Positions 8,018 through 61,900 of a stretch of DNA of 64,000 bases are shown here, piece by piece. The translations under genes were made by a program, and so were the position numbers. The notes beneath the pieces are model-generated. The model made no database searches. It was not told the DNA's origin and saw nothing but the letters and a program-made list of their open reading frames with translations. This DNA is from Ylistrum balloti (Eukaryota). Location: the NCBI RefSeq assembly GCF_031769215.1, contig NW_026782006.1, positions 908,070 through 972,069 of the forward strand, written 5' to 3'. Each line of letters begins with the position of its first letter. Position 1 is the stretch's first letter.

Positions 8018-9307
8018 TCATATAACTCCAGACTATTGTAGACAACATATAACTCAAGGTTATGGTAGACAACATATAACTCCAGATTATGGTAGACAAC
8101 ATATAGCTCCAGGTTATTGCAGACAACATATAGCTCCAGGTTATGGTAGACAACATATAACTCCAGATTATGGTAGACAACATATAACTTCAGGCTATAG
8201 TAGACAACATATAACTCCAGGTTATGGTAGACAACATATAACTCCAGGTTATGGTAGACAACATATAGCTCCAGGTTATTGCAGACAACATATAACTCAA
8301 GGTTATGGTAGACAACATATAACTCCAGGTTATGGTAGACAACATATATCTCCAGACTATGATAGACAACATATAACTCCAGGTTATGGTAGACAACACA
8401 TAACTTCAGGCTATGAAAGACAACATATACCTCCAGACTATGATAGACAACATATAACTCCAGGTTATGGTAGACAACATATAACTCCAGGTTATGGTAG
8501 ACAACATATAGCTCCAGGTTATTGCAGACAACATATAACTCAAGGTTATGGTAGAAAACATATAACTCCAGGTTATGGTAGACAACATATAGCTCCAGAC
8601 TATGATAGACAACATATAACTCCAGGTTATGGTAGACAACATATAACTTCAGGCTATGGTAGACATCAATGAACTCCAGGCTATGGTAGACAACATATAC
8701 CTCCAGGTTATGGTAGACAACATATAACTCCAGGTTATGGAAGACAACATATAACTCCAGGTTACGGTAGACAACATATAACTCAAGGTTATGGTAGACA
8801 ACATATAGCTCCAGGTTATGGTAGACATCATTGAACTCCAGACTATGGTAGACAACATATAACTCAATGTTATGGTAGACAACATATACCTCCACATATC
8901 TCCAGGTTATGGTAGACATCATTGAACTCCAGACTAAGATAAGACAACATATAACTCCAGGTTATGGTAGACAACATATAACTCCAGGTTATGGTAGACA
9001 ACATATAACTCCAGGCTATGGTAGATAACATATAACTCCAGGTTATGGTAGACAACATATAACTCCAGGTTATGGTAGACAACATTGAACTCCAGGTTAT
9101 GGTAGACAACATTGAACTCCAGGCTATGGTAGATAACATATAACTCAAGGTTATGGTAGACAACATATAACTCCAGGTTATGGTAGACAACATATAACTC
9201 CAGGTTATGGTAGACAACATATAACTCCAGGTTATGGTAGACAACATATAACTCCAGGTTATGGTAGACAACATATAACTCCAGGTTATGGTAGACAACA
9301 TATAACT
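8018..9307. repeat. 27-bp minisatellite, copy 2 (about 48 units)
   Basis: Same unit as 2545-3213. Confidence 0.95.
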
Positions 9308-9549
9308 CTAGGTTGAGACTAAGGTGTTTCACTTTGAAAGGTGGTGATTCAACATAATTTTACAGACCATGTATTTGGTCAGTCAAATTAATACCCCCTG
9401 GTCTTCTGAAAAAAAATAAGAGCAAATTTGTCTAGGATATGCCTAATTTATAAACATGAGAAGTTTGCAAAATATTTTCAGAGTAATATATATCACATTT
9501 GTAACATCAAATAGTGCTAATTTGCTTGATTAAACATTAAATTATGTAA

Positions 9550-11565: not shown

Positions 11566-12545
11566 GTCTTCTACTTCACAACTCATTTCCAAGGCCAATT
11601 CCTCCTGTCCCTTCTCTATCCAATTCTGAAGACTTGATTAGAATTTGATATTAATCAGAGCTGTATCAAGCAGAAGTTTTTGTCAGATATTGTTAAGAAA
11701 TCATTCCCTTATCAGCATAACCCTTGTCAAAAGTCTTAAGAAATGTGGTTTTCCTCATCTTTGAATTATGGGACCAGTATGAATTTCCAGGTGATAAAAT
11801 TGACTGTCAATGAAAAAAATCCTTCATCTTAATTTCTCAATCTATTAACCTGTTTGAAAGTGTTGTTTTCTAATATGATAAACACTAGCAGTGATCAACA
11901 GTTGGGATATTAGGGTATTTTATGTAAATATACTAAATTTGTGTGATCAAATTTTAGTGCATCATTACTCTGGCAAATTAGTACGTTGATGAGCTTGTGT
12001 ATCCATAGTCAAGATCAACATGGAAAACTGGAAAAAATATCAGCTAATCAGGTCACACCAGCCTCATTAAATATGCACAGAATTTGCCAATAATCACACT
12101 TTAACAAGAGATTAAGGTAACAAGTCTACCAACCAAGCCTCCTCATAATTCATTTGTTCCTACAAAAGATAACATGTGGAAAGCATTCAGTTAGAGTGTC
12201 ACAAAATATCAGCCAATCAGGTCACAGCAGTCTCATCAAGTATGCATAGAGTTTGCAGATACTCAAACCTGAAGAAGGAATTAATGTAATAAGTCTATAA
12301 AGCAAGTTTCCTAAAAATTCTTATCATTTCTTCTTAAGATAAGGTGCAGAAAGATTTCCCATAGAGTGATTAAAGAAATCAACCAAGTCACAGCAGCCTC
12401 ATTAAATATGAGCAGAATTCACCGTATGTCAAAATTGGGAGAGGGATTAAGGTAACAAGTGAACCAACCAAGTTTCTTCAAAATTCTACCAGTCCTTCTA
12501 AAAATATCGAGTGGAGAGAAATTAAAGAAAACACTCAATCAGGTC

Positions 12546-12864
12546 ACAGCAGCCTCATTATCTCAATCAGGTCACACATTATCTCAATCATCACAGTAGC
12601 CTCATTATCTCAATCAGTTCACAGCAGCCTCATTATCTCAATCAGGTCACAGCAGCCTCATTATCTCAATCAGGTCACAGCAGCCTCATTATCTCAATCA
12701 GGTCACAGTCATTATCTCAATCAGGTCACAAGTAGCCTCATTATCTCAATACAGGTCACAGCAGCCTCATTATCTCAATCAGGTCACAGTACACATTATC
12801 TCAATCAGGTCACAGTAGCCTCATTATCTCAATCAGGTCACACATATCTCAATCAGGTCACTGT
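12546..12864. repeat. 28-bp minisatellite, copy 2
   Basis: Same unit. Confidence 0.9.
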
Positions 12865-13086
12865 ACCAAATCACATATCTAGTTGATAAGATTCAAGCTT
12901 TTATTGGATATACTCACCTTAGAAGGTATTGGTAATATTCTATCTTTGGAAAACTGTACCACAGGAGCCCTTCAAATCAAGAATGATGACCATTTAGAAA
13001 TTATTTCAGGATTGACAATCCATTTTAACATCTATACAACAAATTATTCAACAATTGTTTTATAACAAACATTGGAGTACACATCA

Positions 13087-13508
13087 TATAACTCCAGACT
13101 GTAGACAACATATAACTCTGAGGTTATAGTAGACAACATATAACTCCAGATTATGGTAGACAACATATAGCTCCAGGTTATTGCAGACAACATATAGCTC
13201 CAGGTTATGGTAGACAACATATAACTCCAGATTATGGTAGACAACATATAACTTCAGGCTATGATAGACAACATATAACTCCAGGTTATGGTAGACAACA
13301 TATAGCTCCAGGTTATTGCAGACAACATATAACTCAAGGTTATGGTAGACAACATATAACTCCAGGTTATGGTAGACAACATATACTCCAGACTATGTAG
13401 ACAACATATAACTCAGGTTATGGTAGACAACATATAACTCCAGGTTATGGTAGACAACTGTAGTACAACATTAACTCCAGGTTATGGTAGACAACATATA
13501 ACTCTTAT
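13087..13508. repeat. 27-bp minisatellite, copy 3, degenerate with many small indels
   Basis: Same unit but decayed; runs directly into the 51-bp array with spacer B missing. Confidence 0.8.
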
Positions 13509-15605
13509 GGTAGACTAACATCTGAACAATATCTAACATCTGATGCTGTAGTACAACTTATAACTGCTCTGACTGTACTGCTCTGACTAACTCTGATGCT
13601 GTAGTACTTAAACTGCTCTGACTGTACACAATCTAACATCTAACATATACTGCTCTGACTGTACACAATCTAACATCTGATGCTGTAGTACTTACTTATA
13701 CTGCTCTGACTGTACACAATCTAACATCTGATGCTGTAGTACTTACTGACTGTAAACAATACTGCTCTGATGCCTACTTACAACATGTAGAATTTAACAT
13801 CTGATGCTGTACTTACTATATACTGCTCTGACTGTACACAATCTAACATCTGATGCTGTAGCTTACTTATACTGCTCTGACTGTACACAATCTAACATCT
13901 GATGCTGTAGTACTTACTTATACTGCTCTGACTGTAATCTAACAATCTAACATCTGATGCTGTAGTACTTACTTATACTGCTCTGACTGTACACAATCTA
14001 ACATCTGATGCTGTAGTACTGCTCTGACTGTACACAATCTAACATCTGATGCTGTAGTACTGCTCTGACTGTACACAATCTAACATCTGATGCTGTAGTA
14101 CTGCTCTGACTGTAAACAATCTAACATCTGATGCTGTAGTACTGCTCTGACTGTACACAATCTAACATCTGATGCTGTACTGCTCTGACTGTACACAATC
14201 TAACATCTGACTGTAGTACTTACTTATACTGCTCTGACTGTACACAATCTAACATCTGATGCTGTAGTACTGCTCTGACTGTACACAATCTAACATCTGA
14301 TGCTGTAGTACTTACTTATACTGCTCTGACTGTACACAATCTAACATCTGATGCTGTAGTACTGTACACAATCTAACATCTACTTATACTGCTCTGACTG
14401 TACACAATCTAACATCTGATGCTGTAGTACTTACTTATACTGCTCTGACTGTACACAATCTAACATCTGATGCTGTACTGCTCTGACTGTACACAATCTA
14501 ACATCTGATGCTGTAGTACTGCTCTGACTGTACACAATCTAACATCTGATGCTGTAGTACTTACTTATACTGCTCTGACTGTACACAATCTAACATCTGA
14601 TGCTGTAGTACTTACTTATACTGCTCTGACTGTAAACAATCTAACATCTGATAGCTGCTCTGACTGTACACAATCTAACATCTGATGCTTATACTGCTCT
14701 GACTGTACACAATCTAACATCTGATGCTGTAGTACTTACTTATACTGCTCTGACTGTACACAATGACTGTACACAATCTAACATCTGATGCTGTAGTACT
14801 TACTTATACTGCTCTGACTGTACACAATCTAACATCTGATGCTGTAGTACTGCTCTGACTGTACACAATCTAACATCTGATGCTGTAGTACTTACTTATA
14901 CTGCTCTGACTGTAAACAATCTAACATCTGATGCTGTAGTACTGCTCTGACTGTACACAATCTAACATCTGATGCTGTAGTACTTACTTATACTGCTCTG
15001 ACTGTACACAATCTAACATCTGATGCTGTAGTACTTACTTATACTGCTCTGACTGTACACAATCTAACATCTGATGCTGTAGTACTGCTCTGTACACAAT
15101 CTAACATCTGATGCTGTAGTACTTACTTATACTGCTCTGACTGTACACAATCTAACATCTGATGCTGTAGTACTTACTTATACTGCTCTGACTGTAAACA
15201 ATCTAACATCTGATGCTGTAGTACTTACTTATACTGCTCTGACTGTACACAATCTAACATCTGATGCTGTAGTACTGCTCTGACTGTAAACAATCTAACA
15301 TCTGATGCTGTAGTACTGCTCTGACTGTACACAATCTAACATCTGATGCTGTAGTACTGCTCTGACTGTAAACAATCTAACATCTGATGCTGTAGTACTG
15401 CTCTGACTGTAAACAATCTAACATCTGATGCTGTAGTACTGCTCTGACTGTAAACAATCTAACATCTGATGCTGTAGTACTGCTCTGACTGTAAACAATC
15501 TAACATCTGATGCTGTAGTACTTACTTATACTGCTCTGACTGTAAACAATCTAACATCTGATGCTGTAGTACTTACTTGTACTGCTCTAACTGTAAACAA
15601 TCTAA
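13509..15605. repeat. 51/42-bp minisatellite, copy 3 (5-prime part scrambled)
   Basis: Same unit; first ~1.3 kb has many indels. Confidence 0.9.
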
Positions 15606-16595
15606 CACCTCATACTGGTCTTCTACTTCACAACTCATTTCCAAGGCCAATTCCTCCTTCCCTTCTCTATCCAATTCTGAAGACTTGATTAGAATTTGAT
15701 ATTAATCAGAGCTGTATCAAGCAGAAGTTTTTGTCAGATATTGTTAAGAAATCATTCCCTTATCAGCATAACCCTTGTCAAAAGTCTTAAGAAATGTGGT
15801 TTTCCTCATCTTTGAATTATGGGACCAGTATGAATTTCCAGGTGATAAAATTGACTGTCAATGAAAAAAATCCTTCATCTTAATTTCTCAATCTATTAAC
15901 CTGTTTGAAAGTGTTGTTTTCTAATATGATAAACACTAGCAGTGATCAACAGTTGGGATATTAGGGTATTTTATGTAAATATACTAAATTTGTGTGATCA
16001 AATTTTAGTGCATCATTACTCTGGCAAATTAGTACGTTGATGAGCTTGTGTATCCATAGTCAAGATCAACATGGAAAACTGGAAAAAATATCAGCCAATC
16101 AGGTTACACCAGCCTCATTAAATATGCACAGAATTTGCCAATAATCACACTTTAACAAGAGATTAAGGTAACAAGTCTACCAACCAAGCCTCCTCATAAT
16201 TCATTTGTTCCTACAAAAGATAACACGTGGAAAGCATTCAGTTAGAGTGTCACAAAATATCAGCCAATCAGGTCACAGCAGTCTCATCAAGTATGCATAG
16301 AGTTTGCAGATACTCAAACCTGAAGAAGGAATTAATGTAATAAGTCTGTAAAGCAAGTTTCCTAAAAATTCTTATCATTTCTTCTTAAGATAAGGTGCAG
16401 AAAGATTTCCCATAGAGTGATTAAAGAAATCAACCAAGTCACAGCAGCCTCATTAAATATGAGCAGAATTCACCGTTAGTCAAAATTGGGAGAGGGATTA
16501 AGGTAACAAGTGAACCAACCAAGTTTCTTCAAAATTCTACCAGTCCTTCTAAAAATATCGTGTGGAGAGAAATTAAAGAAAACACTCAATCAGGT

Positions 16596-16810
16596 CACAG
16601 CAGCCTCATTATCTCAATCAGGTCACATCAGCCTCATTATCTCAATCAGGTCACAGTAGCCTCATTATCTCAATCAGGTCACATCAGCCTCATTATCTCA
16701 ATCAGGTCACATCAGCCTCATTATCTCAATCAGGTCACAGTAGCCTCATTATTTCAATCATGTCACAGTAGCCTCATTATCTTGATCAGGTCACAGTAGC
16801 CTCATTATCT
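16596..16810. repeat. 28-bp minisatellite, copy 3
   Basis: Same unit. Confidence 0.9.
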
Positions 16811-29800: not shown

Positions 29801-32800
29801 TAATTTTTCAATGTCAAAATTCTAGACAAGTCAACTGTTGACCATGGTGTTTTTCTGATCAGTCCCAAAATCAAAGGGGCTCAATTAGGGACTGAGGGAA
29901 ACCTACAAATGAACTTTGAGAAAAGATCCATCCTCTAATTCTCAGGAGAAAGTGATAATTGAAATTATTTATGGATGGTCATAAAAAATGGACATCAGGC
30001 AGTTTTAAAAGCCCACCATCAGATGATGGTGGGGAAAAATCTAAACATTACAAAACTTGATTAAATTTGAAGTTTTGTTACATAAAAATTCATCTTAATG
30101 CTTGCAATTTTGATCTCAGTCTTAGTGTAAAAAAATATTTGTGATTTTCAGTTAATGTTTGTCATGGTCTGTGGAGGCTGTGTATCTGTGACTTCCTATC
30201 AACGTTTGTGATAGTCTGTTGAGGCTGTGCATCTGTGACTTCCTGTCAATGTCTGTGAAAATCTGTTAAGGCTGTGTATCTGTGACTTCCTGTCAATGTT
30301 TGTGATGGACTGTTGAAGCTGTGTATCTGTGGCTTCCTGTCAATGTTTGTGATGGTCTGTGGAGGCTGTGTATCTGTGACTTCCTGTCAATGTCTGTGAT
30401 GGTCTGTGGAGGCTGTGTATCTGTGACTTCCTGTCAATGTTTGTGATAGTCTGTTGAGGCTGTGTATCTGTGACTTCCTGTCAATGTTTGTGATAGTCTG
30501 TTGAGGCTGTGTAACTGTGACTTCCTGTCAATGTTTGTGATAGTCTGTGGAGGCTGTGTATCTGTGACTTCCTATCAACGTTTGTGATAGTCTGTTGAGG
30601 CTGTGCATCTGTGACTTCCTGTCAATGTCTGTGAAAGTCTGTTAAGGCTGTGTATCTGTGACTTCCTGTCAATGTTTGTGATGGTCTGTTGAAGCTGTGT
30701 ATCTGTGGCTTCCTGTCAATGTTTGTGATAGTCTGTTGAGGCTGTGTAACTGTGACTTCCTGTCAATGTTTGTGATAGTCTGTGGAGGCTGTGTATCTGT
30801 GACTTCCTGTCAATGTTTGTGATAGTCTGTTGAGGCTGTGTAACTGTGACTTCCTGTCAATGTTTGTGATAGTCTGTGGTGGCTGTGTATCTGTGACTTC
30901 CTGTCTGCTGTGTAACTGTGACTTCCTGTCAATGTTTGTGATAGTCTGTTGAGGCTGTGACTTCCTGTCAATGTTTGTGATAGTCTGTCTATTGAGGCTG
31001 TGTATCTGTGACTTCCTGTCAATGTTTGTGATATGGTCTGTGGAGGCTGTGTATCTGTGACTTCCTGTCAATGTTTGTGATAGTCTGTTGAGGCTGTGTG
31101 TATAGTCTGTTGAGGCTGTGCATCTGTGACTTCCTGTCAATGTTTGTGATAGTCTGTGTGAGGCTGTGTATAGTCTGTGAGGACTGTGACTTCCTGTCAA
31201 TGTTTGTGATAGTCTGTGGAGGCTGTGTATCTGTGACTTCCTGTCAATGTTTGTGATAGTCTGTTGAGGCTGTGTAACTGTGACTTCCTGTCAATGTTTG
31301 TGATAGTCTGTGGTGGCTGTGTATCTGTGACTTCCTGTCAATGTTTGTGATAGTCTGTTGAGGCTGTGTAACTGTGACTTCCTGTCAATGTTTGTGATAG
31401 TCTGTTGAGGCTGTGTAACTGTGACTTCCTGTCAATATCTGTGATAGTCTGTTGAGGCTGTGTATCTGTCACTCCCTGTCAATGTATGTGATAGTCTATT
31501 GAGGCTGTGTATCTGTGACTTCCTGTCAATGTTTGTGATGGACTGTTGAAGCTGTGTATCTGTGGCTTCCTGTCAATGTTTGTGATGGTCTGTGGAGGCT
31601 GTGTATCTGTGACTTCCTGTCAATGTCTGTGATGGTCTGTGGAGGCTGTGTATCTGTGACTTCCTGTCAATGTTTGTGATAGTCTGTTGAGGCTGTGTAT
31701 CTGTGACTTCCTGTCAACGTTTGTGATAGTCTGTTGAGGCTGTGCATCTGTGACTTCCTGTCAATGTCTGTGAAAGTCTGTTAAGGCTGTGTATCTGTGA
31801 CTTCCTGTCAATGTTTGTGATGGTCTGTTGAAGCTGTGTATCTGTGGCTTCCTGTCAATGTTTGTGATAGTCTGTTGAGGCTGTGTAACTGTGACTTCCT
31901 GTCAATGTTTGTGATAGTCTGTGGAGGCTGTGTATCTGTGACTTCCTGTCAATGTTTGTGATAGTCTGTTGAGGCTGTGTAACTGTGACTTCCTGTCAAT
32001 GTTTGTGATAGTCTGTGGTGGCTGTGTATCTGTGACTTCCTGTCAATGTTTGTGATAGTCTGTTGAGGCTGTGTAACTGTGACTTCCTGTCAATGTTTGT
32101 GATAGTCTGTTGAGGCTGTGTAACTGTGACTTCCTGTCAATATCTGTGATAGTCTGTTGAGGCTGTGTATCTGTCACTCCCTGTCAATGTATGTGATAGT
32201 CTATTGAGGCTGTGTATCTGTGACTTCCTGTCAATGTTTGTGATAGTCTGTTAAGGCTGTGAAACTGTGACTTCCTTTCAATGTTTGTGATAGTCTGTGG
32301 TGGCTGTGTATCTGTGACTTCCTGTCAATGTCTGTGATAGTGTGAAGAGGCTGTGTATCTGTCACTCCCTGTCAATGTCTGTGATAGTATGAAGAGGCTG
32401 TGTATCTGTCACTCCCTGTCAATGTCTGTGATAGTATGAAGAGGCTGTGTATCTGTCACTCCCTGTCAATGTCTGTGATAGTCTATTGAGGCTGTATATC
32501 TGTCACTTCCTGTTAATGTTTGTGATAGTATGTTGAGGGTTTGTATCTGTCACTTCCTGTCAATGTCTGTGATAGTATGAAGAGGCTGTGTATCTGTCAC
32601 TTCCTGTCAATGTCTGTGATAGTCTATTGAGGCTGTGTATCTGTCACGTCCTGTTAATGTTTGTGATAGTATGTTGAGGGTTTGTATCTGTCACTTCCTG
32701 TCAATGTCTGTGATAGTATGAAGAGGCTGTGTATCTGTCACTTCCTGTCAATGTCTGTGATAGTCTATTGAGGCTGTGTATCTGTCACTTCCTGTCAATG

Positions 32801-35800
32801 TCTGTGATAGTATGAAGAGGCTGTGTATCTGTCACTTCCTGTCAATGTCTGTGATAGTATGTTGAGGCTGTGTATCTGTCACTTCCTGTCAATGTCTGTG
32901 ATAGTATGAAGAGGCTGTGTATCTGTCACTTCCTGTCAATGTCTGTGATAGTATGAAGAGGCTGTGTATCTGTCACTTCCTGTCAATGTCTGTGATAGTA
33001 TGAAGAGGCTGTGTATCTGTCACTTCCTGTCAATGTCTGTGATAGTATGAAGAGGCTGTGTATCTGTGACTTCCTGTCAATGTCTGTGATAGTATGAAGA
33101 GGCTGTGTATCTGTGACTTCCTGTCAATGTCTGTGATAGTATGAAGAGGCTGTGTATCTGTCACTTCCTGTCAATGTCTGTGATAGTATGAAGAGGCTGT
33201 GTATCTGTCACTTCCTGTCAATGTCTGTGATGGTATGAAGAGGCTGTGTATCTGTTACTTCCTGTCAATGTCTGTGATAGTATGAAGAGGCTGTGTATCT
33301 GTCACTTCCTGTCAATCTTTATGATAGACTGGTGGTGATTATATTCTTACATTGCTGTCCTGAGAGCTCTTTTTCCATGGTGCTAAGGTACCTGGAAGAC
33401 GGAAACTGACAAGATCATCTTCAACCTGTAATTCTGTGACATAGGTTATCTTGATAACAACATCTGCATTGGCCGGAACATTTCCCACACTGACTGTAAA
33501 CACATCCTGTTAAGAAAATGAAAACTGTCAAATCATCAGAACCTCAGCTTCAAGATTTGCTGAAGATGAACATGTACCTTATACTGTTGAAACTTGTCTC
33601 AAAAATCCAAATCCAAATTCTGTTAGAGTTTAAATAATTTTCAAGTCATGAACTTTTTCCTATCATATCTTTGTAATTTCAGTTTGGATGACTCGAATTT
33701 CATTGAGTCGAAATTTCGGTTGAGTCAAAGCAATTTTTCAGTCCCTTCCATTGGAAAGCAAGGGAAAACTCATTTATTGTCTTGAAATTGATTTTTGTCA
33801 AAACAATGGTTTGTCTTCTGACCAAATCGACAAATACATACACAAAGTAGAAAGTCACATATGTGTAACACATGGCTAATTACAGCATATCTGTGGTCCA
33901 TCGTACACACAAAACTTGGTCACTGGCGATTAGTTACCAGTTTAATTATCCAATTAAAGTTTGGCTTCTTAATTAGTGTCACCATCTTGTAGAAGTGACT
34001 TACCTGTACATTAAAAAAGTAGCATGTTAACACAAAACATGAAAACATTTAGCTTGGTTGCGTGCATCTTCAGGAACAATAAAAACGAAACTGTCAAACC
34101 AGTATAAACTTTTTGACGAAATCTGATCCCAACAATTCCAAAAGAAACTAATTTTAAGCTTGTTTACTAAAGGACTGTGATCGGTAACTTTGTAAGATTT
34201 AGTGTTTGGACAATGAAGTGCTGAACGTATCTGTCGTTAATTTTTCATTAATTCATGATTAAACAATGGTGTAAAAACTAACATCAGGAAAAAACATAGG
34301 AGTCCGCCTTGTGTATAATACTGTTTGACACTTTCTGTTATCTGGTTCCTTCTGCTTGTAGATTTTATCCGTTAAAGTCATTAATGCCCTTGTAACTGAT
34401 ACATAATTTAGATTGAACACTTTATAGATTTTATCTGTGTAAGTCATTAATGCCTTTGTAACTGGTACATAATTTGGATTGAACACCTTATAGATTCAGA
34501 TCAGAATTCAAATTGAATTTCGGTTTTCCTTTCATTGAATCAATACTTAAAACTCTTTCACAAAAGTTTGTTTTGAAATAGTAATTCTAACAAGCTGTTT
34601 GACATACCGGTGATTCTTCATCCTGATCCATCAGGTAGGCCCCATGGCCCTCACTGATAGCCTTTTTGTACTCTTGGTGAGCCGTCTCTTTTTCTTTCAC
34701 CTCCCCGACCACATGCTTGTCATTGATGTATGCTTCAAATCCACACACTGCAGCCATCTCATCAAGGGGAAAGACATACTTGCCCTCCAACATTTCCTCA
34801 CTGTTGTTATGGTAATGTTGTAAAACCTTCACCTGACAAGGTTAAGGTCACAACTCACTGTTTAAAGTTATAACTACACCAATCTCCATATAAATGAGGA
34901 GACAGGATGTATCAGCTCAAATTAACCTTATTTTGCAGTTTTGAACATAATGTGTCACATAAATGTTTTGACATAACTAATCCTCACCTGATATGTCAAG
35001 GTTCAACAGTTTAAATTAGTCAAAACTTTGTCAAACTCGTCAAGGTCACAATTATCTACTGTTACAATTACACTATGTCAAGGTCACAATTACCTACTGT
35101 TACAATTACACTATGTCAAGGCCACAATTACCTACTGTAACAATTACACTATGTCAAGGCCACAATTACCTACTGTAACAATTACACTATATCAAGGCCA
35201 CAATTATCTACTGTAACAATTACACTATGTCAAGGTCACAATTATCTACTGTAACAATTACACTATGTCAAGGTCACAATTACCTACTGTAACAATTACA
35301 CTATGTCAAGGCCACAATTACCTACTGTAACAATTACACTATATCAAGGCCACAATTACCTACTGTAACAATTACACTATGTCAAGGTCACAATTATCTA
35401 CTGTAACAATTACACTATGTCAAGGTCACAATTACCTGCTGTAACAATTACACTATGTCAAGGTCACAATTATCTACTATAACAATTACACTATGTCAAG
35501 GTCACAATTACCTACTGTAACAATTACACTATGTCAAGGTCACAATTACCTACTGTTACAATTACACTATGTCAAGGTCACAATTACCTACTGTTACAAT
35601 TACACTATGTCAAGGTCACAATTATCTACTGTTACAATTGCACTATGTCAAGGTCACAATTATCTACTGTTGCAATTACACTATGTCAAGGTCACAATTA
35701 CCTACTGTTACAATTACACTATGTCAAGGTCACAATTACCTACTGTAACAATTATACTAACTTTGTTTATTAATAATACACTAGTACCATTATTAATTAT

Positions 35801-50319: not shown

Positions 50320-50358
50320 TCAATTCCGTAACTTTGCAAGTCTCTGCGTTAACTCATC
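50320..50358 (-). CDS. CHMP1: CHMP1 terminal exon DELTQRLAKLRN*
   Basis: Acceptor ctttttcttcag|; matches CHMP1B C-terminus DELSQRLARLRDQV. Confidence 0.8.
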   Translation of the reverse strand, partial: DELTQRLAKLRN

Positions 50359-53300
50359 CTGAAGAAAAAGAAAACAATTACTTTAGCTGTGTATTTTACA
50401 AAGAATTTCCATAAGCAGTTAGAACATTTCTTTGTAGATGTCAATATACTAACAGGTTTTACAGATAAAGTATAATTTGTAAAAATGCAAATTGTTGAAT
50501 ATATTTAAAATCACTCCATAAATTGCACTTAACATCTACATCACTCTCCAGAATACTAATCACTATCAAAAAGAGAACTGAATAAAATGTAACATACTAA
50601 ACTTTCCTGCAATTAAAATGTCAGATTCCTGGATCACTACTTATATTTTCTTAAGAAGTTACAGAAAACCAATGACTAATACACAGACTACTCATCAGAT
50701 GAAAATTTTAATTAACTAAAATTTTTTTTAAAATCACATCTAAAAAGTCAACTACCCCTAACCAACTTATTCCTGAACAAGATCAGGCCAAAGAGCCACT
50801 TGAATTCTATTAAACTTCATGCTTGTTCACAAAATAGTTGATGATGCTACCACTTAACCCAGAAACTTACCTGTCCAATACTAACAGCTGATGCTGTCAC
50901 CACTTAACACAAAAACTTACCTGTCCAATACTAACAGCTGATGCTGTCACCACTTAATACAGAAACCTACCTGTTCACTACTAGCAGTTGATGATGCGAC
51001 CCCTGATGGTAAAGTGGACTGTGCTGATGGTAGATCCATGTTTAATTCCAATCTGTAACACAGGACACATACAATGTATCTATGATCAAAAGAGAATTGA
51101 TTCTAAAGTCTCATAAGTTAGCAAAATGAACACCAAAGGAATTACCACAAGTATAGAAGTGGTACATCACTTCATACAATCGAGTAGGACAGCTTGTGCA
51201 ATTGTATACACAACAAGTAAACTACAATAGATAATCCATTTCATATATACATATGTTCATTGTGTATCTCTAGTACATCAACAAACATCCTGTTTTCATA
51301 ATACATCATTGAAATCTGTTGATGGTCTTCCATAGACAAAGTTGACAGATAACTGAACAAAAATATGTGAAATTATAGTTCATCAAAAACAAATATTGAA
51401 GGTTTTACTGATTGACATACCCAGCCTCATCAGCAACTTCCTGCATAAGGCCTTCCACCTGTGTCTGTGGTGTGTTGAGGGTGGACGAAGCATTCATTGT
51501 ATCCTCCATTACCTGTGACTGCACATCTAGATTCTCAAACTGCTGTTCAAATCTATCCATCAACTGGGAGATCTGTAAAAAGGAGGAATCACATTCATTT
51601 CAAAATCTGATGGATAACACAACACTTGTCGGAAGATATCAAGTTATGTACAGTATCATAAAATGAAGAGGTGCCCTTCACACCCTGCTTAACTACAACT
51701 TGACACCAATAATTAACTGCTTTCTAACACGATCAATATGATATATAGTCTGGAGTAGTATTTACAGGCCCAAGGAACACTACATATGTACATACTAAAT
51801 TTGATAAAGATTAGATTTTTGAATTCTGAAAAGCATCATAGATGAACACTTCAAAATACATCAATATATCTCATCATTCTCCAGGTGAAGTTTCATTATA
51901 ACAAAAATAAATTTACCTTCTCCAGATTCATACTCTTCATTGCTGATTCCATTGACTTGACCACACCTGCCATGGAACCTGTGACCTGCCGATCATAGAC
52001 ATTTACATATTTTATTCATATCTAGAAATCTAATTTATCAATTCACCTTCATATATTTCTAACAAAATAGATCTGTATTCTTTAAAGAAGCAATATTTAC
52101 AGAAATCCCAGTGACATTTTATGAAATTCACTATATATAAAGTTGGTTGTTGGTCTGTAACAATACAGTTCAATATTGTAAAGGTACATGCTGTAGAAGT
52201 AATATTATTTTAGTGTTTTTCATGTTAAGGATATCGCACAAAAATGGCTTTGAGAATTTCCAATTTCTGTACCTTGTCAATAGAGCAATTATTGTAAAGG
52301 CAAAAATTCAACATAGAACTTATTTGTTTAAAATTTAAAATGAACTGTGCCGAAATAAATATGTTTAAGACTTAGTGAACATGTCAGAAAATAACATAAA
52401 TCTGAGGTAACCTTGACTGAAGTTACCAAGCAAACTCTATAAATGATGAATGAGTAAGATATTATGTACCTGTTTCATGGTGACAGCAGTTTGAACTCGA
52501 GCTGCTACAGCATCGATCCTTGCACTCATACGTCTGTAATTAAGGGCCTGGTTTTTCTGGCGGATTGAATTCTCTGCATGTATTCTGGCTCCCTCCAGGT
52601 TACCTTTCTGGATAGCCTGTAACAAGTAAATTCTTATTTTTTAGAAAGAATCTGAATACACAACCTGAGACTCTAATAACATCAAAATGAGATTTAATTT
52701 AGAAATTATGATCAAATTTCGTATAAATTCTACACTGATCTGACATAGACCAAGGCTGTAAGATTATCAGAGAGCACTAATATCAAAAGCAATATGAGGT
52801 TTCATTAAAGTGTCTGATTGTAACAATGACAGTGTTAAGAACTAGACAAACTATTTCTTGCCAAATGTTGACTTCCAGCAGTGTCCTACCCCTTTGGTGG
52901 TACATGACACACTGTCTGAAGGCATTTTCTAAATCATATTGTGTTCTAAATTTCATTAAGGTAACTGGAAGAAAAGAGAAACCATGTGCAAGATGGCACT
53001 AGTTGTACCAATATGATCTTCACCAGTGATCTAAATTAGCCTTCTTATTAATGCACATGAATATGGAGGCCCTGCTTGACTAGACTTGTATTTAAAACAA
53101 GTTGTACATCTTATTTCTTTACATATATGTACAGTTTTTAAAACAAAAAATTGAACTTAAAGATGTACATTTACAATTATAATTTCATTTTACCAGTATA
53201 ATGTTACAGAATATCATCATCACCTGTACATATGATTGACAATTCCAATATTTCTGTGTTACAATAAACTCACCTTTTTCAATTTTCTTTTTTCTGATCT

Positions 53301-54623
53301 TTCTTCCTTATCACATTTGTTAGCAAAACGCAGCAGTGACCTAGCACTATATTTCAAATTGAAGAGTTGTCCTGCAGTGTGTTAAGGTTTAGATCTGTGT
53401 GCTAAGTGTGTTATACAAAAGCTTAGGTATAGGTCAAAGATTATGTCAGTTATAGAAAAGTAATGCATACAGATATATCCTAAAGAATTAGAAACATGTA
53501 TGAATTATGCTCCGATGACTAGGCTTATCAGCAAAATGAAATAACAAGGTTAAGTTTGTGATTCCTTGTGTATAATTGAGATTATGTAAAATTTGGTTGC
53601 AAATTGTTTTATCTAATATCCATTATAAATCCCATCATTCACTTCATAGGGCAGTCATTATAAAACAACTGAACTGCCAGAAAATTTACTAGCAATACCT
53701 CACACAACAATTACCTTGGAGGATCAGAACTGTGTTTATGATAGTAATAAGTAATCAAATGCTGCTACAGCCTTACATCATTGCTGTAGAGATGAAATGG
53801 TACATATAATTGTGTTTATACAGATTGTGTTAAGTACCTCTATTTTAAATACATAATCGCCATTTGGCACATCAGTAACATTTGTCCTTTACATGTTACA
53901 GTAAAAACGGTTTAGATCAAATTCTATCATACTGATCAGTTATAGTTTTTCTTAATTATACTTTAAGATGTCAGTAACCAGTAAGTTCTAGGCTTCTCTT
54001 GACCGAGCCTAAAGTTAAGATTCTTGTAAGCTCTAAGTTTACCTTGACCAAGCCCAAGATCATGATTCCAAATTTCTTAGTTTCCCTTGACTAGGCCTAC
54101 AGTTAATATTCTAGTCAGTTCCAAGTTTCTCTTGACAAGGCAAAAGGTGAAGATTCTAGTAAGATTGAAGTATACCTAGACCAGACCTAAGGTTAAGGAG
54201 AATCAACAAGAATTACAAGTTTGTTTTTACAACTCATTTCCTATTGTCAATGTCATTCTATGCTTGTATAATATAAGATATGTGTAATAGAATAAGTGCA
54301 TTACAATAAGTGCTATACGATGTAATATTTTATATTGGTAATATCTTAAACATATAATTGTTTCAAGTTATATGTGGTACACTAGTCAATACTTACCTTA
54401 TAATTACATACATATGTAACTAATTATTTGTAAAATACTTACCTTATAATTACTGGTAATCAATGCATAAATTTCTGAGTTATACTTACTTACAAGCTCA
54501 TTAAAAGGTATATGAGCAACGTTACCTTTTTTAATTTGGTTTTTTCTTCTTTTTCTGACTTTTCACTTCGTTTTGCATTGCGTTCCAAGTCCTTTGCAGC
54601 AAATTTGAGATTAAAGAGATGTT
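50320..54623 (-). CDS. CHMP1: CHMP1 (charged multivesicular body protein 1, ESCRT-III; CHMP1B-like) gene, exons 2-7 modelled, exon 1 not found
   Basis: Exons translate to HLFNLKFAAK...AIQKGNLEGARIHAENSIRQKNQALN..RMSARIDAVAARVQTAVTM...VTGSMAGVVKSM...ISQLMDRFEQQFENLDVQ...DELTQRLAKLRN*, collinear with human CHMP1B; canonical splice sites and phases. Confidence 0.85.
50878..50978. repeat. CHMP1: ~47-bp unit x3: tandem triplication of the CHMP1 exon-6 tail plus its GTAAGT/GTAGGT donor
   Basis: Minus-strand reading: ...GTGAACAG|gtaggtttctgtattaagtggtgacagcatcagctgttagtattggacag|gtaagtttttgtgttaagtggtgacagcatcagctgttagtattggacag|gtaagtttctgggtt. Confidence 0.85.
50971..51052 (-). CDS. CHMP1: CHMP1 exon 6 (G)LELNMDLPSAQSTLPSGVASSTASSEQ
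   Basis: Acceptor gtgttacag|, donor CAG|gtaggt; this donor is tandemly triplicated downstream. Confidence 0.8.
51421..51572 (-). CDS. CHMP1: CHMP1 exon 5 ISQLMDRFEQQFENLDVQSQVMEDTMNASSTLNTPQTQVEGLMQEVADEA(G)
   Basis: Acceptor cctttttacag|, donor GG|gtatgt. Confidence 0.85.
51917..51985 (-). CDS. CHMP1: CHMP1 exon 4 VTGSMAGVVKSMESAMKSMNLEK
   Basis: Acceptor ctatgatcggcag|, donor AAG|gtaaat. Confidence 0.85.
52470..52616 (-). CDS. CHMP1: CHMP1 exon 3 AIQKGNLEGARIHAENSIRQKNQALNYRRMSARIDAVAARVQTAVTMKQ
   Basis: Acceptor cttgttacag|, donor CAG|gtacat; near-identical to CHMP1B. Confidence 0.9.
53274..53371 (-). CDS. CHMP1: CHMP1 exon 2, copy A (paralogous alternative): QLFNLKYSARSLLRFANKCDKEERSEKRKLKK
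   Basis: Acceptor cactgcag|, donor AAG|gtgagt; identical 98-bp length and phase to copy B, 1.25 kb downstream. Confidence 0.65.
54526..54623 (-). CDS. CHMP1: CHMP1 exon 2, copy B: (K)HLFNLKFAAKDLERNAKRSEKSEKEEKTKLKK
   Basis: Acceptor agtctag|, donor AAG|gtaacg; 98 bp with 2+32 codons; closest match to CHMP1B EKHLFNLKFAAKELSRSAKKCDKEEKAEKAKIKK. Confidence 0.7.
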
Positions 54624-55798
54624 CTAGACTGTTAAGGTATATCAGTCAAAGCATGCAATAGGTATATATATCAATATACATAAAAACACAGTCATATATA
54701 TAAAAAACTATACACAATTAAGATTAAGGACGCTTAATATACAGCTATATATATCTTATTGGAAAGGTATGATATACTTTTATGATGATAAACATATAAA
54801 CTTAGAATAAATTCATAATTCCAGAGACATATATAACGTGTTACATACGTCTATGACAATTCCAATATGCAGATTTTTGTTGAATATTGTTAAAAAACCT
54901 ATAACATGCTAATAATCATAATGATGACATCTTATAGCATCTAACAATCTTTTTGATGGAGGATATGTATAACGTATACAGATAACACAGGACCACAAAC
55001 TTATAATTATAGACATACACATTTAAGTCTATGATACATATAGGACATGTCTATGCATCTATACAGTTAATTCTATCCCGAACCTGGTAAGAGTGATAAA
55101 CCCCGTCACAATTTTGTAACATGAATCTGGATTCAGTTTAATCATATATACATGAACAAACTAAAATTAAAGCACTCGCTTTGCTGAAAACAAATTTTGT
55201 ATCTGTATATCTATATTTAAGTTCAGAGCTAACAGTACTTTATAGTAAATATCACAATCAACATCACTTATTTATTTTACAACATGAGGGTTTATGACAT
55301 GGGCCATATTCACTACCTTGAATGGCACTTCAGTAGAAATCCCCTAAATGGTACAATGTTTAAGAATCCTAATATTTCCAATAAACAATTCCATGTGTAA
55401 TCAGGAAATCGTGACTTCCAATGTTTACATTTTCTGCTTCCATCAAGCAAACAGATCTTGAGAATCAACATCTCACCCATTTTTAAGCATCAGAATGTTT
55501 TCATTAATAGTTTAAAGGATACTGTCCATCGACATCTTTCGTTTCTGTTTTCCTCAGATTAAGTTTCCCTGTGTTTGTGTTTAAGATCTGTCTGCAAGAG
55601 TTGTGATTGAGAAATGACTACTTCCCTTGTGATGTTTAATGGAAAATGAGCTCATTGTAAAACGTCATCGGTATTTGTGTATTATTTGGATATCGGAACA
55701 CCTTTGAATCGATCCTTTACTTGAGTGCATGTTGCATTGGGTAATGTAAAAATACGAGGACTTCCGACTTGGAGAAGAGCACATGGGTTTCAGTAAAC
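54624..55798. promoter_or_regulatory. Putative shared divergent promoter region between CHMP1 (minus) and URB1 (plus); the unidentified CHMP1 exon 1 should lie here
   Basis: Head-to-head gene orientation; URB1 ATG at 55799; CHMP1 exon 2 needs an upstream exon that supplies the ATG and one phase base. Confidence 0.3.
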
Positions 55799-55955
55799 AT
55801 GACGGAGGATAATAATACACCGTTAAAGAGGAAAAAGAAGAAGTCTGCGGAAGAAAAACAAGATGCTGAGTCACCAAATAAAAAGAAAAGGACAGAAGAT
55901 TTTACAGAGATCACATTTAAATACCTTCTGAGAGATCCATCGACAGCTTTTTCAG
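55799..55955 (+). CDS. URB1: URB1 exon 1 MTEDNNTPLKRKKKKSAEEKQDAESPNKKKRTEDFTEITFKYLLRDPSTAFS
   Basis: First ATG of the open frame; donor CAG|gttcgg; Lys-rich N-terminus then FK..L.DP as in human. Confidence 0.7.
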
Positions 55956-58900
55956 GTTCGGTTCTGCAGTCGGCCGATTTATTTTGCATCAACTTAAAAA
56001 AAACTACCGGTACTAGCAGATTCGCAGGCCTGAAAATTCTAATGTCACTTGTTCCGACCAGAAGTTTGAATATTGTAGTGACAAACAGTTTTGGCACTTG
56101 CAGTTTTATTACAGTATTAATCGGTTGATATGTTTGTGCAATGTGAGATCGAAGAAATTCTTCAATGTTACCGTGTCTAAGAAAAAGGCTATTTATGGTC
56201 ATGCATTCACACGAATAACAGACTTAAATATGTCCAAGTTCGTTCTCACACACATCATGACTGCTGACATTTTTATACATTGTCAACGATTGTAATGGAA
56301 CATATATAGTATGTCGTTTTCTGTTCGATGACAACCAATCACTTTCAAACTCCCCAGGGTGCAAAGTTTTGTATGTCTGAACAGCTTTTTGTCATAATAA
56401 GAAATCTCAAATTGGTTTACAGATAAGATTCAGATTGCGTCTTGAAACTTTGTTGGCTCTCTGGCTACATCATGAAATAGGTTTTTTAAAGAGTTATTGC
56501 CCTTTCTCTTTTTCAGCATTAAGAATTTTTTTGGCACTATCTTCCTCAGTTTACAACTATTTTCTATTAAACTTTGTAGGCATTATAAGTATGATAAATG
56601 GGCATGTTTTCCTCTGTAATATTGAGAAACCTGTAATGAGATTTAATATTTTTTCAAGTTTTCGCTTCTTCTTTCAGCATTACAGTATTGTCCCGAATTA
56701 TTCTCTCAAATTTCAACTTTTCTCTGTAATACTTGGTATGCTTTACCATCAGAACATCAATATCCATTTTGATTTATTTCATGATATGGCCAATTTCCTA
56801 AATTTGTCCTTTACTCTTTCAATTTTCATCCCAACTAACAAATTTTCTTCCAAAAATGAGATAAAAGGCTTTTTCCCCAAAAACTCAGAGGGAAAAAACT
56901 TTCAATTTCATTGCTGTTGGGAAGTCATGAATGTTGTCTAGTATAGGGAGAAAATGACAAATGTATTGGTGTATTTCAGTAAATTTTGTGATAATTCAAA
57001 TACTGATTGTTAAGTTTTTTGATCACATGTTTACTGTGATAAAATTACCCATATCTAATATTTTGCTTATAATCAACATTTAAACACTGGACATAGTTTG
57101 GAACTGTGAGTTAATATGATGTTTGATTGTTACAATAGTCCACTTCAGATAGCCTGTATTGTATCAGGCATTGAATCATGTGCTTGTCTGATTACAACAA
57201 TTTAAAAAAAAAGATTTTCAATAAAGTATTTAAGGAAGCACACAAGTTAAACTATGTAAATCAGGGGTAGCCATTTAATGGCATTTTAGATGTAAATATA
57301 AAGAAAGTAACATTTAAACAAGTCATAGCTCACATCCTATCTGGATTCTGGTCTTATCAGTATTAAAAGTTTTTGTATCTTATTTCAGCTTTTGAACAAT
57401 TTTCTGAGACTGCACGTCAGTGGTCAGAGGAGCATGGATATGATATCATTGCTGGATACTGTCGATCTTCAGCAGAATGCAGTGAAATATTTAAAGTACT
57501 TGAAGCAGGGAAAAGAAAACCAGGAGAGGTAATCTCAGTCTTTATGATGAAAATACATCACTCCATCTTAAGTATGTTCATTTCTTATATATTTATTTAT
57601 TCATGCTGGTTAATGAGTCCTTGCTGACATAGACATTACAAAATCCTAATATAATGTTAAGTGAATCATACAGTAGACTTTCTTAGTAAAAGAATGATGG
57701 GAGAATTGTAGACCTAGCCTAAACTGAGCATGTCACAGCCAGAGGACTGGTTAAGGACAGAGTGGAAGAGGAAGGGGATCCTACACTGAGTAAATTTCTG
57801 TATGTTGGTAGTATATTGGGAGGCAGTCAGAATTACTTAATAAATAATCCTTATTGCTAACTTAACCCTGACCTCTGGGCTGGTGTTATCATGCCTGCTC
57901 TTTTTTGAAAAACCACAGAGGGATCTTTGTCACGAGAGTTGGATATTTTTTTATTCGGGCCATCATTCCGCGGACTTTGGGTTAGTGGTTAGATGTTAGT
58001 AAGGTGCTGGTAGGGTGATCTGCCCCTAAACATACTATTTACTTTAGTAATGTCTATACTTTCTGTAAATCCATATGCGATAAACATTCATAGAAAAAAA
58101 ATGTAGAAGTAATTCATACAGTAGACATGTACAGGTAAAAGTGAGTCATACAGTAGATATGTACAGGTAAAAGTGAGTCATACAGTAGATATGTACAGGT
58201 AAAGTAAGTCATACAGTAGATATGTACAGGTAAAAGTGAGTCATATCGTAGACATATACAGGTAAAGTTAGTCATACAGTAGACATGTACAGGTAAAAGT
58301 AATTCATACAGTAGACATGTACAGGTAAAGTTAGTCATACAGTAGACATGTACAGGTAAAAGTGAGTCATACAGTAGACATGTACAGGTAAGATTGAGTC
58401 ATACAGTAGACATGTACAGGTAAAAGTGAGTCATACAGTAGACATGTACAGGTAAAAGTGAGTCATACAGTAGACATGTACAGGTAAAAATGTGTCATAC
58501 AGTAGACATGTACAGGTAAAAGTGAGTCATATCATAGTCATATACAGGTAAAGTTAGTCATACAGTAGACATGTACAGGTAAAAGTGAGTCATACAGTAG
58601 ACATGTACAGGTAAGATTGAGTCATACAGTAGACATGTACAGGTTAAAGTGAGTCATACAGTAGACATGTACAGGTAAAAGTGAGTCATACAGTAGACAT
58701 GTACAGGTAAAAATGTGTCATACAGTAGACATGTACAGGTAAAAGTGAGTCATATCGTAGACATATACAGGTAAAGTTAGTCATACAGTAGACATGTACA
58801 GGTAAAAGTGAGTCATACAGTAGACATGTACAGGTAAAAGTGAGTCATACAGTAGACATGTACAGGTAAAAGTGAGTCATACAGTAGACATGTACAGGTA

Positions 58901-61900
58901 AAAGTGAGTCATACAGTAGACATGTACAGGTAAAAATGTGTCATACAGTAGACATGTACAGGTAAAAGTGAGTCATATCGTAGACATGTACAGGTAAAAG
59001 TGAGTCATACAGTAGACATGTACAGGTAAGATTGAGTCATACAGTAGACATATACAGGTAAAAGTGAGTCATACAGTAGACATGTACAGGTAAAAATGTG
59101 TCATACAGTAGACATGAACTGGTAAAAGTGAGTCATACAGTAGACATGTACAGGTAAAAGTGAGTCATACAGTAGACTTTCAACGAAAAGGAAAAAAAAA
59201 TCAGTTATGAGAAGAAGATTGTGATTAAATAATGATATAACTGTTTTATTACTATAGTCAAACTTCATTAATTCAAATGCATATTCATCCTAAGTTTGTC
59301 ATTTGACCAGTTGGCAGCTATTTTCGGTGTGTTGGAGGCTATATTACTAAGGATTGCAGATGACCTTGAGAAGTTTACCATGGTTGGCCAGAACATCGTT
59401 CAAAGACTGTTATCTTCACAAATGGCTACAGTATACTTTACCCTGCTGGTGACTAACAAGTCTGGTCACATCAAGGTTACCCTCAAGCTTCTGACAGCTA
59501 TGGTGATGTTGGGAGACCGGTCAGCCCGGATGGTTCTTGCTCAGTTTGATTTCAACAATCCAGTCCTACCACCATTATTGAATCGCAGAGACAAAAAGGT
59601 AGGATAATGCAAAAAAAATTCATGTGTAATCCTTTTGGTAAAGAATGTTGAGTGAAAAAAAATTATCATCTGTGTTCATTGGGCGAATTATTGAACTGTT
59701 GGTGATTGAAATAAAATTGATCAAATTTTTATATGATCATGAAAAATTTTTAGGGGTTGTATTATGTTCTGATGTTGTCCATCTGTCTATCCATCTGTCT
59801 GTCCATCTTTTTGTCCATCTGTTTGTCCATTTGTAAACTTGTGCTTTTCCTGAGATCTCCTCCCACAGTTTTTACACATAATGTTTCAAACGTTACAGAC
59901 AGACATGAAGTTGTGCCTCTCTGAACAGCATTTTGATTTGATGTTTTAAAAAGAGTTACTGCCCTTTTTTTCGATCATCTTTATTTTCTCTTGAGACCTC
60001 TTTATAAGGTGGCATTTTGACTTAACAAGTTTTTGAAAATCATTGCCCTTTATTCTCTCATTTTTCAGCTACTTTCTTTTAAGCTTGGTAGACTTAATTT
60101 TACTGACATGACATTGTGCTTTCTCAAGAGCATTTTGATTAAACTGTTAACTGATTGTCATATTTCAATGCATAATAGTATCTCTCTTTTACATGGGACA
60201 GGCTTATATTGTTCTGCCCTGCAGTATTCTTGTTTTGTATAGCTCTTTGGCCAAGTTATTGAAATACTCAGTCATGGTTGTACCCTGTTGTGTTCCAGGA
60301 TCCTAAAGATGTACGTACATGCTTGATTCACTTTATGATGTCTTTTCTGATCACTGGGAGTGATGATGTTGTCAAACAACTAATGGAACAAAGAGGTAGG
60401 ATTTAGATGTGTTTCAAAATTGGGAAATGAGAAAAATGTCATCATAACCATCAATAGAAATTTGTTAGCAATAATTATTTACATATTGATCAAAAGGATT
60501 TTGTCTAGTCCACATTTGTTAAGACCCTGGATCCTTTTACCATTTTTGAAGGAAGGTGTATTGGAAGAACGGCACGCTCCTATCTTCCTGTAATAAGTAA
60601 TTGTGTTGCGCTACATTTTCATTTTATACAAAGTTTTGATGGAAACTTAGTACCCATAAACCTGATATAGTTGTGTACCTGTGTGCTCCGTAGTGTAACA
60701 GGGTTTGCAGGTTTACTTTGATCTTATAAGCTTTGCTGATAAAAAGTATGTTTTCAACATAATTTTTGTCCATTTATACGTTCCACATGCTGCATGAACC
60801 TAGGGTAAAATTGTAATAAATGATAAATTTTCATATCATTTAGACAAGCTTCATGTTTGATTTCAGGTTTCCTTGGTAGCTTGATACCTGGGCTCCAATC
60901 TGATAGTGTGGGTAACATACAGATGGTAATGTCTACATTACTTCACAAGGTAAAGATAATGTAAACTGAAACTAAAGGATGTTGGATTTGATATCATCTG
61001 CTAGAGATATTTCCAAATTTATATATAAACATACCATTAAAATGTGGCTTATGCATTGGACTAATATGTATGTTGACATACCCATTCTGTGTGGCAGATA
61101 CATTGGACTAATATGTATGTTGACATTCTCATTCTGTGTGGCAGATACATTGGACTAATATGTATGTTGGCACACTCATTCTGTGTGGCAGATACAATGG
61201 ACTAATATGTATTTTGACATTCTCATTCTGTGTGGCAGATACATTGGACTAATATGTATGTTGACATACCCATTCTGTGTGGCAGATACATTGGACTAAT
61301 ATGTATTTTGACATTCTCATTCTGTGTGGTAGATACATTGTACTAACATGTATGTTGACATACTCATTCTGTGTTGTAGATACATTGGACTAATATGAAT
61401 GTTGACACACTCATTCTGTGTCTTAGATACATTGGACTAACATGTACGTTGACATACTCATTCTGTGTGGCAGATACATTGGACTAATATGTATGTTGAC
61501 ATACTCATTCTGTGTTTGAAATATGATTCTGTTCACATGACAGTATTTTTTTGTTATTTTTGACATACCTAAGTTGAGATTTTCTGAGATTGAAATGATA
61601 CACATAAACCCAATCTCACATACTAGTGATGTTAACAACAAGCTTTATATATATGTTCAGTGTTAAAAGAAGATTTAAGATATGCCAGGTTCCCCATATC
61701 ACATTGTATTAGCTTGTTTAGGTTTTGTCAATATACAGTCACTGTTCTTATATTCAGGTTGTCCAGAATCCTGCAGTTAGTAAGACATTAAAGGTGCGAC
61801 TGTTTACCGAGTCCAACATGAGACTTTTGGGTCAGATGTACCACTGGACTGGTCCTAGCACCTGGCAGAACCGGCCAGCAGAGGATCAGATAGAGGTTAG

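Follow-up and report, generated by a model that had tools for sequence, protein, structure and literature searches.

A tandem repeat spanning the exon 6-intron 6 boundary of a CHMP1B-like gene in the saucer scallop Ylistrum balloti

The CHMP1B-like gene

The 64,000-nt stretch of Ylistrum balloti DNA analysed here (the window) contains a CHMP1B-like gene on the minus strand. Seven coding exons were located with tblastn, using human CHMP1A and CHMP1B as queries. The coding part of exon 1 (55523-55535), exon 2a (54526-54623), exon 3 (52470-52616), exon 4 (51917-51985) and exon 5 (51421-51572) were delimited by splice-site-bounded assembly. Exon 6 (50971-51052, 82 nt), found by tblastn with human CHMP1B, lies between a ttacag/ acceptor and a /gtaggt donor (the slash marks the splice boundary) and encodes (G)LELNMDLPSAQSTLPSGVASSTASSEQ. 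Intron 6 (50359-50970) follows, and its position is conserved in Mya and Lottia. The coding part of exon 7 (50320-50358) encodes the C-terminal MIM helix DELTQRLAKLRN and the stop codon. The name exon 6, used in an original prediction for this DNA, holds if the alternative exons 2a and 2b are counted as one.

The same prediction assigned the gene to CHMP1, and the protein agrees. The exons, joined through the gtaggt donor of exon 6, give a 600-nt CDS whose product is identical to Ylistrum balloti XP_060065416.1, named 'charged multivesicular body protein 1B2-like' and listed under the species name of this saucer scallop with no isoform label. The product matches the Pfam domain Snf7 (PF03357) with 66.7 bits against a cut-off of 27.3 (E 2.7e-18), and phmmer aligns it with the human CHMP1B structures 8v2q and 6e8g over residues 2-198, that is over its full length, with E ~5e-81. 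The last 53 residues (147-199) align with the CHMP1B chain of PDB 3eab, and the exon 7 peptide aligns with the human CHMP1B C-terminus. The C-terminal tail of ESCRT-III proteins is a MIT-interacting motif for VPS4, spastin and other partners (PMC9477494). One CHMP1B-like gene is annotated, and it is the sole copy seen at the locus.

Structure of the repeat

The end of exon 6 is repeated. On the minus strand, a 50-bp unit that comprises 31 nt from the 3' end of exon 6 and the adjoining 19 nt of intron 6 is present in three head-to-tail copies; the exon share of the unit rises to ~33 nt if flanking matches are counted. Thus the unit is not the ~47 bp first proposed, nor does it consist of ~27 nt of exon plus the donor. 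Tandem Repeats Finder reports a single array at 50849-50993 with a period of 50, 2.9 copies, 90% matches, no indels and a score of 234, and a repeat search finds a 72-nt segment three times at an exact spacing of 50 nt (50833-51004). A 37-mer containing CAG/GTAAGT occurs exactly twice, at 50865-50901 and 50915-50951, where none is expected from 100 shuffles. The tandem donor repeat of the CHMP1B-like gene is thereby confirmed as real, beyond a chance match. The 50-bp unit had no match (0) in a metagenome scan.

The first copy, c0 (50952-51001, minus strand), takes in the final 31 nt of exon 6 (50971-51001), runs on for 19 nt into intron 6 and includes the authentic donor, d1, so that the true exon-intron junction lies inside the first unit. 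The second and third copies, c1 (50902-50951) and c2 (50852-50901), also on the minus strand, are wholly intronic and carry the pseudo-donors d2 and d3, respectively. In gene sense, from the acceptor to a point past the array, the sequence reads ttacag/ATTGGAATT...GGGGTCGCATCATCAACTGCTAGTAGTGAACAG/gtaggtttctgtattaagt / ggtgacagcatcagctgttagtattggacag gtaagtttttgtgttaagt / ggtgacagcatcagctgttagtattggacag gtaagtttctgggttaagt / ggtagcatcatcaactattttgtgaacaagcatgaag..., with TTTCTGTATTAAGT ahead of c1 and TTTTTGTGTTAAGT ahead of c2. The two intronic copies were originally described as lying upstream; as the gene is on the minus strand, these copies at lower coordinates are downstream in the transcript. 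The interval first given, 50878-51052, does begin at the exon 6 acceptor, but leaves 8 nt between its end and the third donor.

Copies c1 and c2 are identical in their exon-like 31 nt and match each other at 48/50 positions (96%), while c0 matches c1 at 40/50 (80%) and c2 at 40/50. The 19 intronic nucleotides of c1 and c2 match those of c0 at 16/19 positions, in exact and gap-free register. Seven of the differences between c0 and c1 fall in the exon part, and at six of the seven c0 holds the state seen in the orthologs. This is as expected if c0 is constrained as coding sequence and c1 and c2 drift freely, and it points to relaxed constraint on the two intronic copies.

Three copies with a donor were originally counted, which is correct; beyond them lies a fourth copy, which is degenerate and has no donor. 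This copy, X3 (GGTAGCATCATCAACTATTTTGTGAACAAG, ~50822-50851, minus strand), is seen in the alignment of the copies and in that of the orthologs. It has GCATCATCAACT and GTGAACA in common with the exon copy, and has CAAG/CATGAA where the other copies have a donor.

Strength of the donors and the products predicted from them

The donor is present three times, as originally claimed: d1 is CAG/GTAGGT (GT at 50970-50969, minus strand), and d2 (GT at 50920-50919) and d3 (GT at 50870-50869), on the same strand, are both CAG/GTAAGT. The reiterated donors d2 and d3 thus match the consensus at 9/9 positions, and in X3 the donor has been lost. Each of d1, d2 and d3 is able to form nine pairs with U1, the +4 G of d1 doing so as a G.U wobble. 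The idea that the extra donors are even better than the first is right in sign, with predicted U1 duplexes of -12.1 kcal/mol for d2 and d3 vs -11.8 kcal/mol for d1, but the difference is marginal. The remaining donors of the gene are weaker than all three, at -6.5 to -10.7 kcal/mol.

Only d1 joins ...SSEQ to DELTQRLAKLRN and yields the annotated protein; exon 7 is in frame from d1 alone. Intron 6 is 612 nt long from d1, 562 nt from d2 and 512 nt from d3, so that exon 6 would be lengthened by 50 nt with d2 and by 100 nt with d3. The original prediction held that such use would shift the frame of the final exon. Although the unit length is, as stated there, not divisible by 3, translation does not reach a shifted exon 7: the extension encodes seven codons (VGFCIKW) and then an in-frame TGA at 50947-50949 (minus strand), 22-24 nt into any extension past d1, and the frame ends ...SSEQVGFCIKW-stop ahead of exon 7. 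Because of this TGA, the product of d2 or d3 would be truncated with loss of the MIM helix, and not one with a frameshifted exon 7. The outcome of splicing at d2 or d3 would therefore be a shortened protein that lacks the MIM, or else a transcript in which a premature stop is present. The predicted exon 6-7 junction from d1 is ...AGTAGTGAACAG/GATGAGTTAACG (also written ...CTAGTAGTGAACAG/GATGAGTTAACGCAG), and that from d2 or d3 is ...AGTATTGGACAG/GATGAGTTAACG (also written ...TTAGTATTGGACAG/GATGAGTTAACGCAG).

Masking of d2 and d3 by RNA structure is unsupported by the folding predictions. The predicted fold of the 283-nt region has a z-score of -0.51, and the predicted probabilities that the 9-mer is unpaired are similar among the donors (0.023 for d1, 0.041 for d2 and 0.004 for d3). 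Copies c1 and c2 do each contain a predicted 7-bp hairpin, UGACAGC-AUCA-GCUGUUA (50932-50949 and 50882-50899, minus strand). Four of the seven c0-to-c1 substitutions create it, with a predicted energy of -8.9 vs -1.7 kcal/mol for the exon copy; this energy is matched by 3% of simulations with seven random substitutions, so that its significance is marginal.

Recursive splicing was also considered. The intronic copies end in ACAG/GTAAGT, and splicing from d1 to the AG would regenerate CAG/GTAAGT, as at a recursive splice site. Recursive sites are known from very long introns, where they come with a branch point and a pyrimidine tract. Here the first step would remove 50 nt of a 612-nt intron, and the tract is 50% pyrimidine vs 89% at the exon 7 acceptor, and recursive splicing was rejected.

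Comparison with other scallops

The Ylistrum locus was compared with its orthologs in Pecten maximus, Argopecten irradians and Mizuhopecten yessoensis. In each of the three, exon 6 is present with a single donor, and no tandem repeat is found at the exon 6-intron 6 junction of these loci. With a single copy in the three other genera, the expansion is, within this set of four scallops, confined to the Ylistrum lineage. The context of d1, GTAGGTTTCTGT, is identical to that of the sole donor of Mizuhopecten, so that c0 carries the ancestral donor.

The Ylistrum sequence after the repeat, gttaagtggtagcatcatca...gaacaag, aligns with the start of Pecten intron 6, gtaaatgggcagcattatta...ggacaag. As the X3 region aligns with the beginning of this Pecten intron, X3 probably predates the expansion.

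Exon 7 of Ylistrum differs from each ortholog by 4-5 nt, and all the differences are synonymous. Judged by this comparison of four scallops, exon 7 is under purifying selection. These synonymous changes may be older than the duplication.

Choice of donor

The reading that accounts best for these observations is that d1, as the most upstream and authentic donor, gives rise to the productive mRNA, and that d2 and d3 are intronic pseudo-donors which would be silent or little used. Transcripts from either of them would end at VGFCIKW-stop, without the MIM; the exon 7 helix, predicted to recruit VPS4- and spastin-type partners, would be kept only via d1. Dominance of d1 with silent or minor use of d2 and d3 is probable, and the boundary-spanning minisatellites of human F7, LMNB2 and PDGF, where the most upstream donor alone is used, provide a precedent (PMC1557585).

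The main alternative is that the extra perfect donors are substantially used, the array being a built-in switch for unproductive splicing or for isoforms. Transcripts from d2 and d3 would then be degraded, or translated to a CHMP1B without the MIM that is unable to recruit VPS4- or spastin-type MIT proteins. Several points favour this alternative. CAG/GTAAGT is the best possible match to U1, and the two sites, like d1, are stronger than the other donors of the gene by the duplex energies given above. Where consensus 5' splice sites lie at least 45 nt apart in mammalian systems, almost all splicing takes place at the intron-proximal one of the two (PMC3413131), and in minigenes of human F7, ~70-90% of splicing went to pseudo-sites that had been converted to the perfect sequence CAG/gtgagt (PMC1557585). 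With perfect donors 50 and 100 nt downstream, these mammalian data, which favour intron-proximal or perfect sites at such a spacing, predict trouble for d1. The first two pseudo-sites of IFI6 and CBS are, moreover, constitutively used (PMC1557585). The donors of c1 and c2 are also intact although the rest of the unit is 20% diverged; however, one change in the 9-nt core vs 1.8 expected at 20% divergence is no evidence of conservation.

Several observations speak against substantial use. No annotated protein uses d2 or d3, and one RefSeq product is on record. Exact look-up of three alternative proteins in a collection of 5.8 billion proteins finds none with the VGFCIKW extension, and a homology search with a chimeric query of exon 2b plus the extension finds no extended isoform among predicted proteins; as the proteins searched are predicted ones, both are weak negatives. 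No other CHMP1B copy is seen at the locus, and purifying selection acts on exon 7, so a heavy loss of d1 splicing should be costly. In addition, the absence of the array from the three other scallop genera means that any such function would be very recent. Substantial use of d2 and d3 is thus rather unlikely, and regulated use, either to down-tune CHMP1B or to make a lineage-specific ESCRT-III subunit without the MIM, is quite improbable. Rather than a device, the array is most probably baggage whose effect is neutral or slightly deleterious. It matters little for ESCRT biology, since the gene still encodes the intact canonical protein and the three other genera examined lack the array.

Origin of the repeat

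The best-supported account of the array, and one we consider likely to be right, is that it is a young, lineage-specific minisatellite whose first unit lies across the exon 6/intron 6 boundary, with d1 as the productive donor. In the ancestral scallop, the intron probably already contained a decayed version of the exon end, ~50 nt past the true one. The similarity of these two stretches would have allowed slippage or unequal exchange to add a 50-bp unit consisting of the exon tail, the donor and 19 nt of intron, and a second, later event would have duplicated the added unit. The divergence of the copies (c1-c2 48/50, c0-c1 40/50) suggests two such rounds of duplication, the first of them older and the second recent.

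The expansion would have taken place in a part of the genome that is highly prone to minisatellite formation. Tandem Repeats Finder gives 70 rows for the window, and 40.4% of its bases lie in arrays with a period of at least 10. Some of these minisatellites sit within introns of the CHMP1B-like gene and of a neighbour gene. A three-copy array at an exon border would be an occasional product of so minisatellite-rich a genome, and such a genome can seed pseudo-donors, potentially new alternative splice sites, at the borders of exons.

A second source for c1 and c2 would be the abundant 41/51-bp satellite (3.4-15.6 kb of the window), by insertion or by gene conversion. Copies c1 and c2 share ACAGCATCAG[C/A]TGTTAG[T/-]ATTG (20/22) with this satellite, the Smith-Waterman score being 32 vs a maximum of 27-29 in 2000 shuffles. 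A 17-mer is confined to the satellite arrays and to c1 and c2, and 5/7 of the c0-to-c1 differences shift toward the satellite, as counted by eye and not computed. However, the match was found post hoc among ~25 repeat families, which puts p at roughly 0.01, and it lies within low complexity of Ser/Ala codons; the Argopecten exon itself has CAGCATCAGCT. The 19-nt intronic part of the unit (GTAAGTTT...TTAAGT) matches c0 at 16/19 positions in a register without gaps, and does not match the satellite. When the entire gene region was compared by blastn with the remainder of the window, no match reached E <= 0.1. With no wider similarity, and with the intronic part of the unit fitting c0, the satellite match is probably due to chance or low complexity, and a satellite origin of c1 and c2 is very unlikely.

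An assembly artefact, or an allele restricted to a rare haplotype, is likewise a very unlikely explanation of the array: one assembly was seen, and copy number typically varies among alleles of a minisatellite (5-9 repeats in F7 IVS7; PMC1557585), but the copies differ at fixed positions (two between c1 and c2, ten between c0 and c1), a pattern that collapse or expansion errors do not give, and copy-number polymorphism is compatible with a boundary-spanning minisatellite and is no replacement for it.

Comparison with known systems

At first the triplicated donor was presented as a peculiarity standing by itself. It does exist, but it belongs to a documented class: Borensztajn et al. 2006 (PMC1557585) described minisatellites in which the first monomer lies across an exon-intron boundary and the following monomers repeat the donor within the intron. 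By structural criteria, the scallop array is a member of this F7 IVS7-type class, as it is tandem, has the junction in its first unit and reiterates the donor. The array is thus a curiosity and not a new kind of element, the arrangement being known from human genes such as F7. We know of no such boundary-spanning array described in CHMP1 or in bivalves.

Intron 7 of human F7 has a 37-bp unit in 5-9 copies, of which the first site alone is used (PMC1557585). The scallop array resembles this VNTR in that the first monomer spans the boundary, with the authentic donor followed by intronic copies, in that the unit is not a multiple of 3, and in that the downstream sites are functional in principle. 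The two differ in detail. In F7 the 5-9 copies are identical, the donor is weak (TGG/gtgggt, consensus value 74) and each unit holds 4 nt of exon, whereas in the scallop there are three copies and one decayed copy of a 50-bp unit with 31 nt of exon, diverged by 4-20%. The downstream donors of the scallop are also a perfect consensus, a condition that broke the dominance of the upstream site in F7 minigenes.

Donors reiterated in an intron by a tandem array are also seen in IFI6, CBS, LMNB2 and PDGF. In LMNB2 and in PDGF intron 4, only the authentic, most upstream donor is used, while in IFI6 (6-16) intron 2 and CBS intron 13 the first two pseudo-sites are used besides the authentic donor (PMC1557585). 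These arrays are long (10-25 units) and mammalian, whereas the scallop array is nascent and molluscan. The engineered duplicated 5' splice sites of the Eperon laboratory (Hodson et al. 2012, PMC3413131) are similar in having strong U1-complementary donors tens of nucleotides apart and one acceptor. They are, however, artificial substrates studied in HeLa extract or cells, and the intron-proximal site wins at a spacing of at least 45 nt; the scallop gene needs the opposite.

The scallop array is therefore of use as a natural test case of 5' splice-site choice: it offers three near-equal sites of maximal U1 pairing at a spacing of 50 nt, of which the first alone keeps the essential C-terminal helix. 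Published models, upstream-first scanning on the one hand and intron-proximal preference on the other, make opposite predictions for it. The spliceosome may essentially always take d1 here, despite two perfect donors 50 and 100 nt nearer the acceptor. If so, the array would be a natural exception, tolerated in evolution, to the rule of intron-proximal preference, and would provide in-vivo support for 5'-to-3' first-come selection outside mammals.

Exon 2 of the CHMP1B-like gene

In Ylistrum balloti, exon 2 of the CHMP1B-like gene is present on the minus strand in two tandem versions, each of 98 nt: exon 2a (54526-54623), the version chosen by RefSeq, and exon 2b (53274-53371), which encodes QLFNLKYSARSLLRFANKCDKEERSEKRKLKK. 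The two have equal phase, both carry AG/GT flanks, and their protein sequences are 53% identical. The open frame and GTGAGT donors of exon 2b are kept in Pecten, Argopecten and Mizuhopecten. The Mya and Lottia loci lack exon 2b, and neither an exact look-up nor a homology search recovered its sequence in any protein of the database. Exon 2b appears to be a mutually exclusive exon that is specific to pectinids and missing from the annotation, and its use would alter helix 1 of CHMP1B. The intron that separates exon 2a from exon 2b contains a degenerate 45-bp array of 4.9 copies (53980-54197, 64% matches).

Minisatellites of the window

Minisatellites, counted at a period of at least 10 and a Tandem Repeats Finder (TRF) score of at least 80, make up 40.4% of the window (1-64000) and fall into about 25 families, whose periods range from 25 to 77 bp. 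A higher-order repeat is seen at 2537-16810: arrays with periods of 27, 41/51 and 28 bp together make up each of its three ~5-kb blocks. A 47-bp unit is repeated about 68 times at 30136-33331, and this array coincides with a sharp local shift in composition (GC 0.43, GC skew +0.28, AT skew -0.40). The 41/51-bp satellite arrays (3449-6441, 9545-11555 and 13531-15607) have ACAGCATCAG[A/C]TGTTAG...ATTG (20/22) in common, in the same orientation, with c1 and c2 (50881-50947), the intronic copies of the repeat unit at the exon 6/intron 6 boundary of the CHMP1B-like gene. The statistics of this match are marginal, and the likeness is probably due to chance.

Genomic neighborhood and gene structure in other molluscs

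The divergent neighbor of the CHMP1B-like gene is an Npa1/URB1-like ribosome-biogenesis gene (~55776-60400, plus strand), whose start is separated from CHMP1B exon 1 by ~250 bp. The head-to-head arrangement of the two genes is also found in Pecten, Argopecten and Mizuhopecten (loci L001-L003) and in the limpet Lottia (L006). A 32-bp array of 34 copies (58103-59177) is presumably intronic, as it lies between two matched exon segments of the Npa1/URB1-like gene.

Unlike the scallop CHMP1B gene with its seven exons, the gene for CHMP1B protein P0009 of the pearl oyster Pinctada imbricata has no introns, its 603-nt coding sequence being translated directly from positions 2001-2603 of locus L004, and it may be a retrogene.
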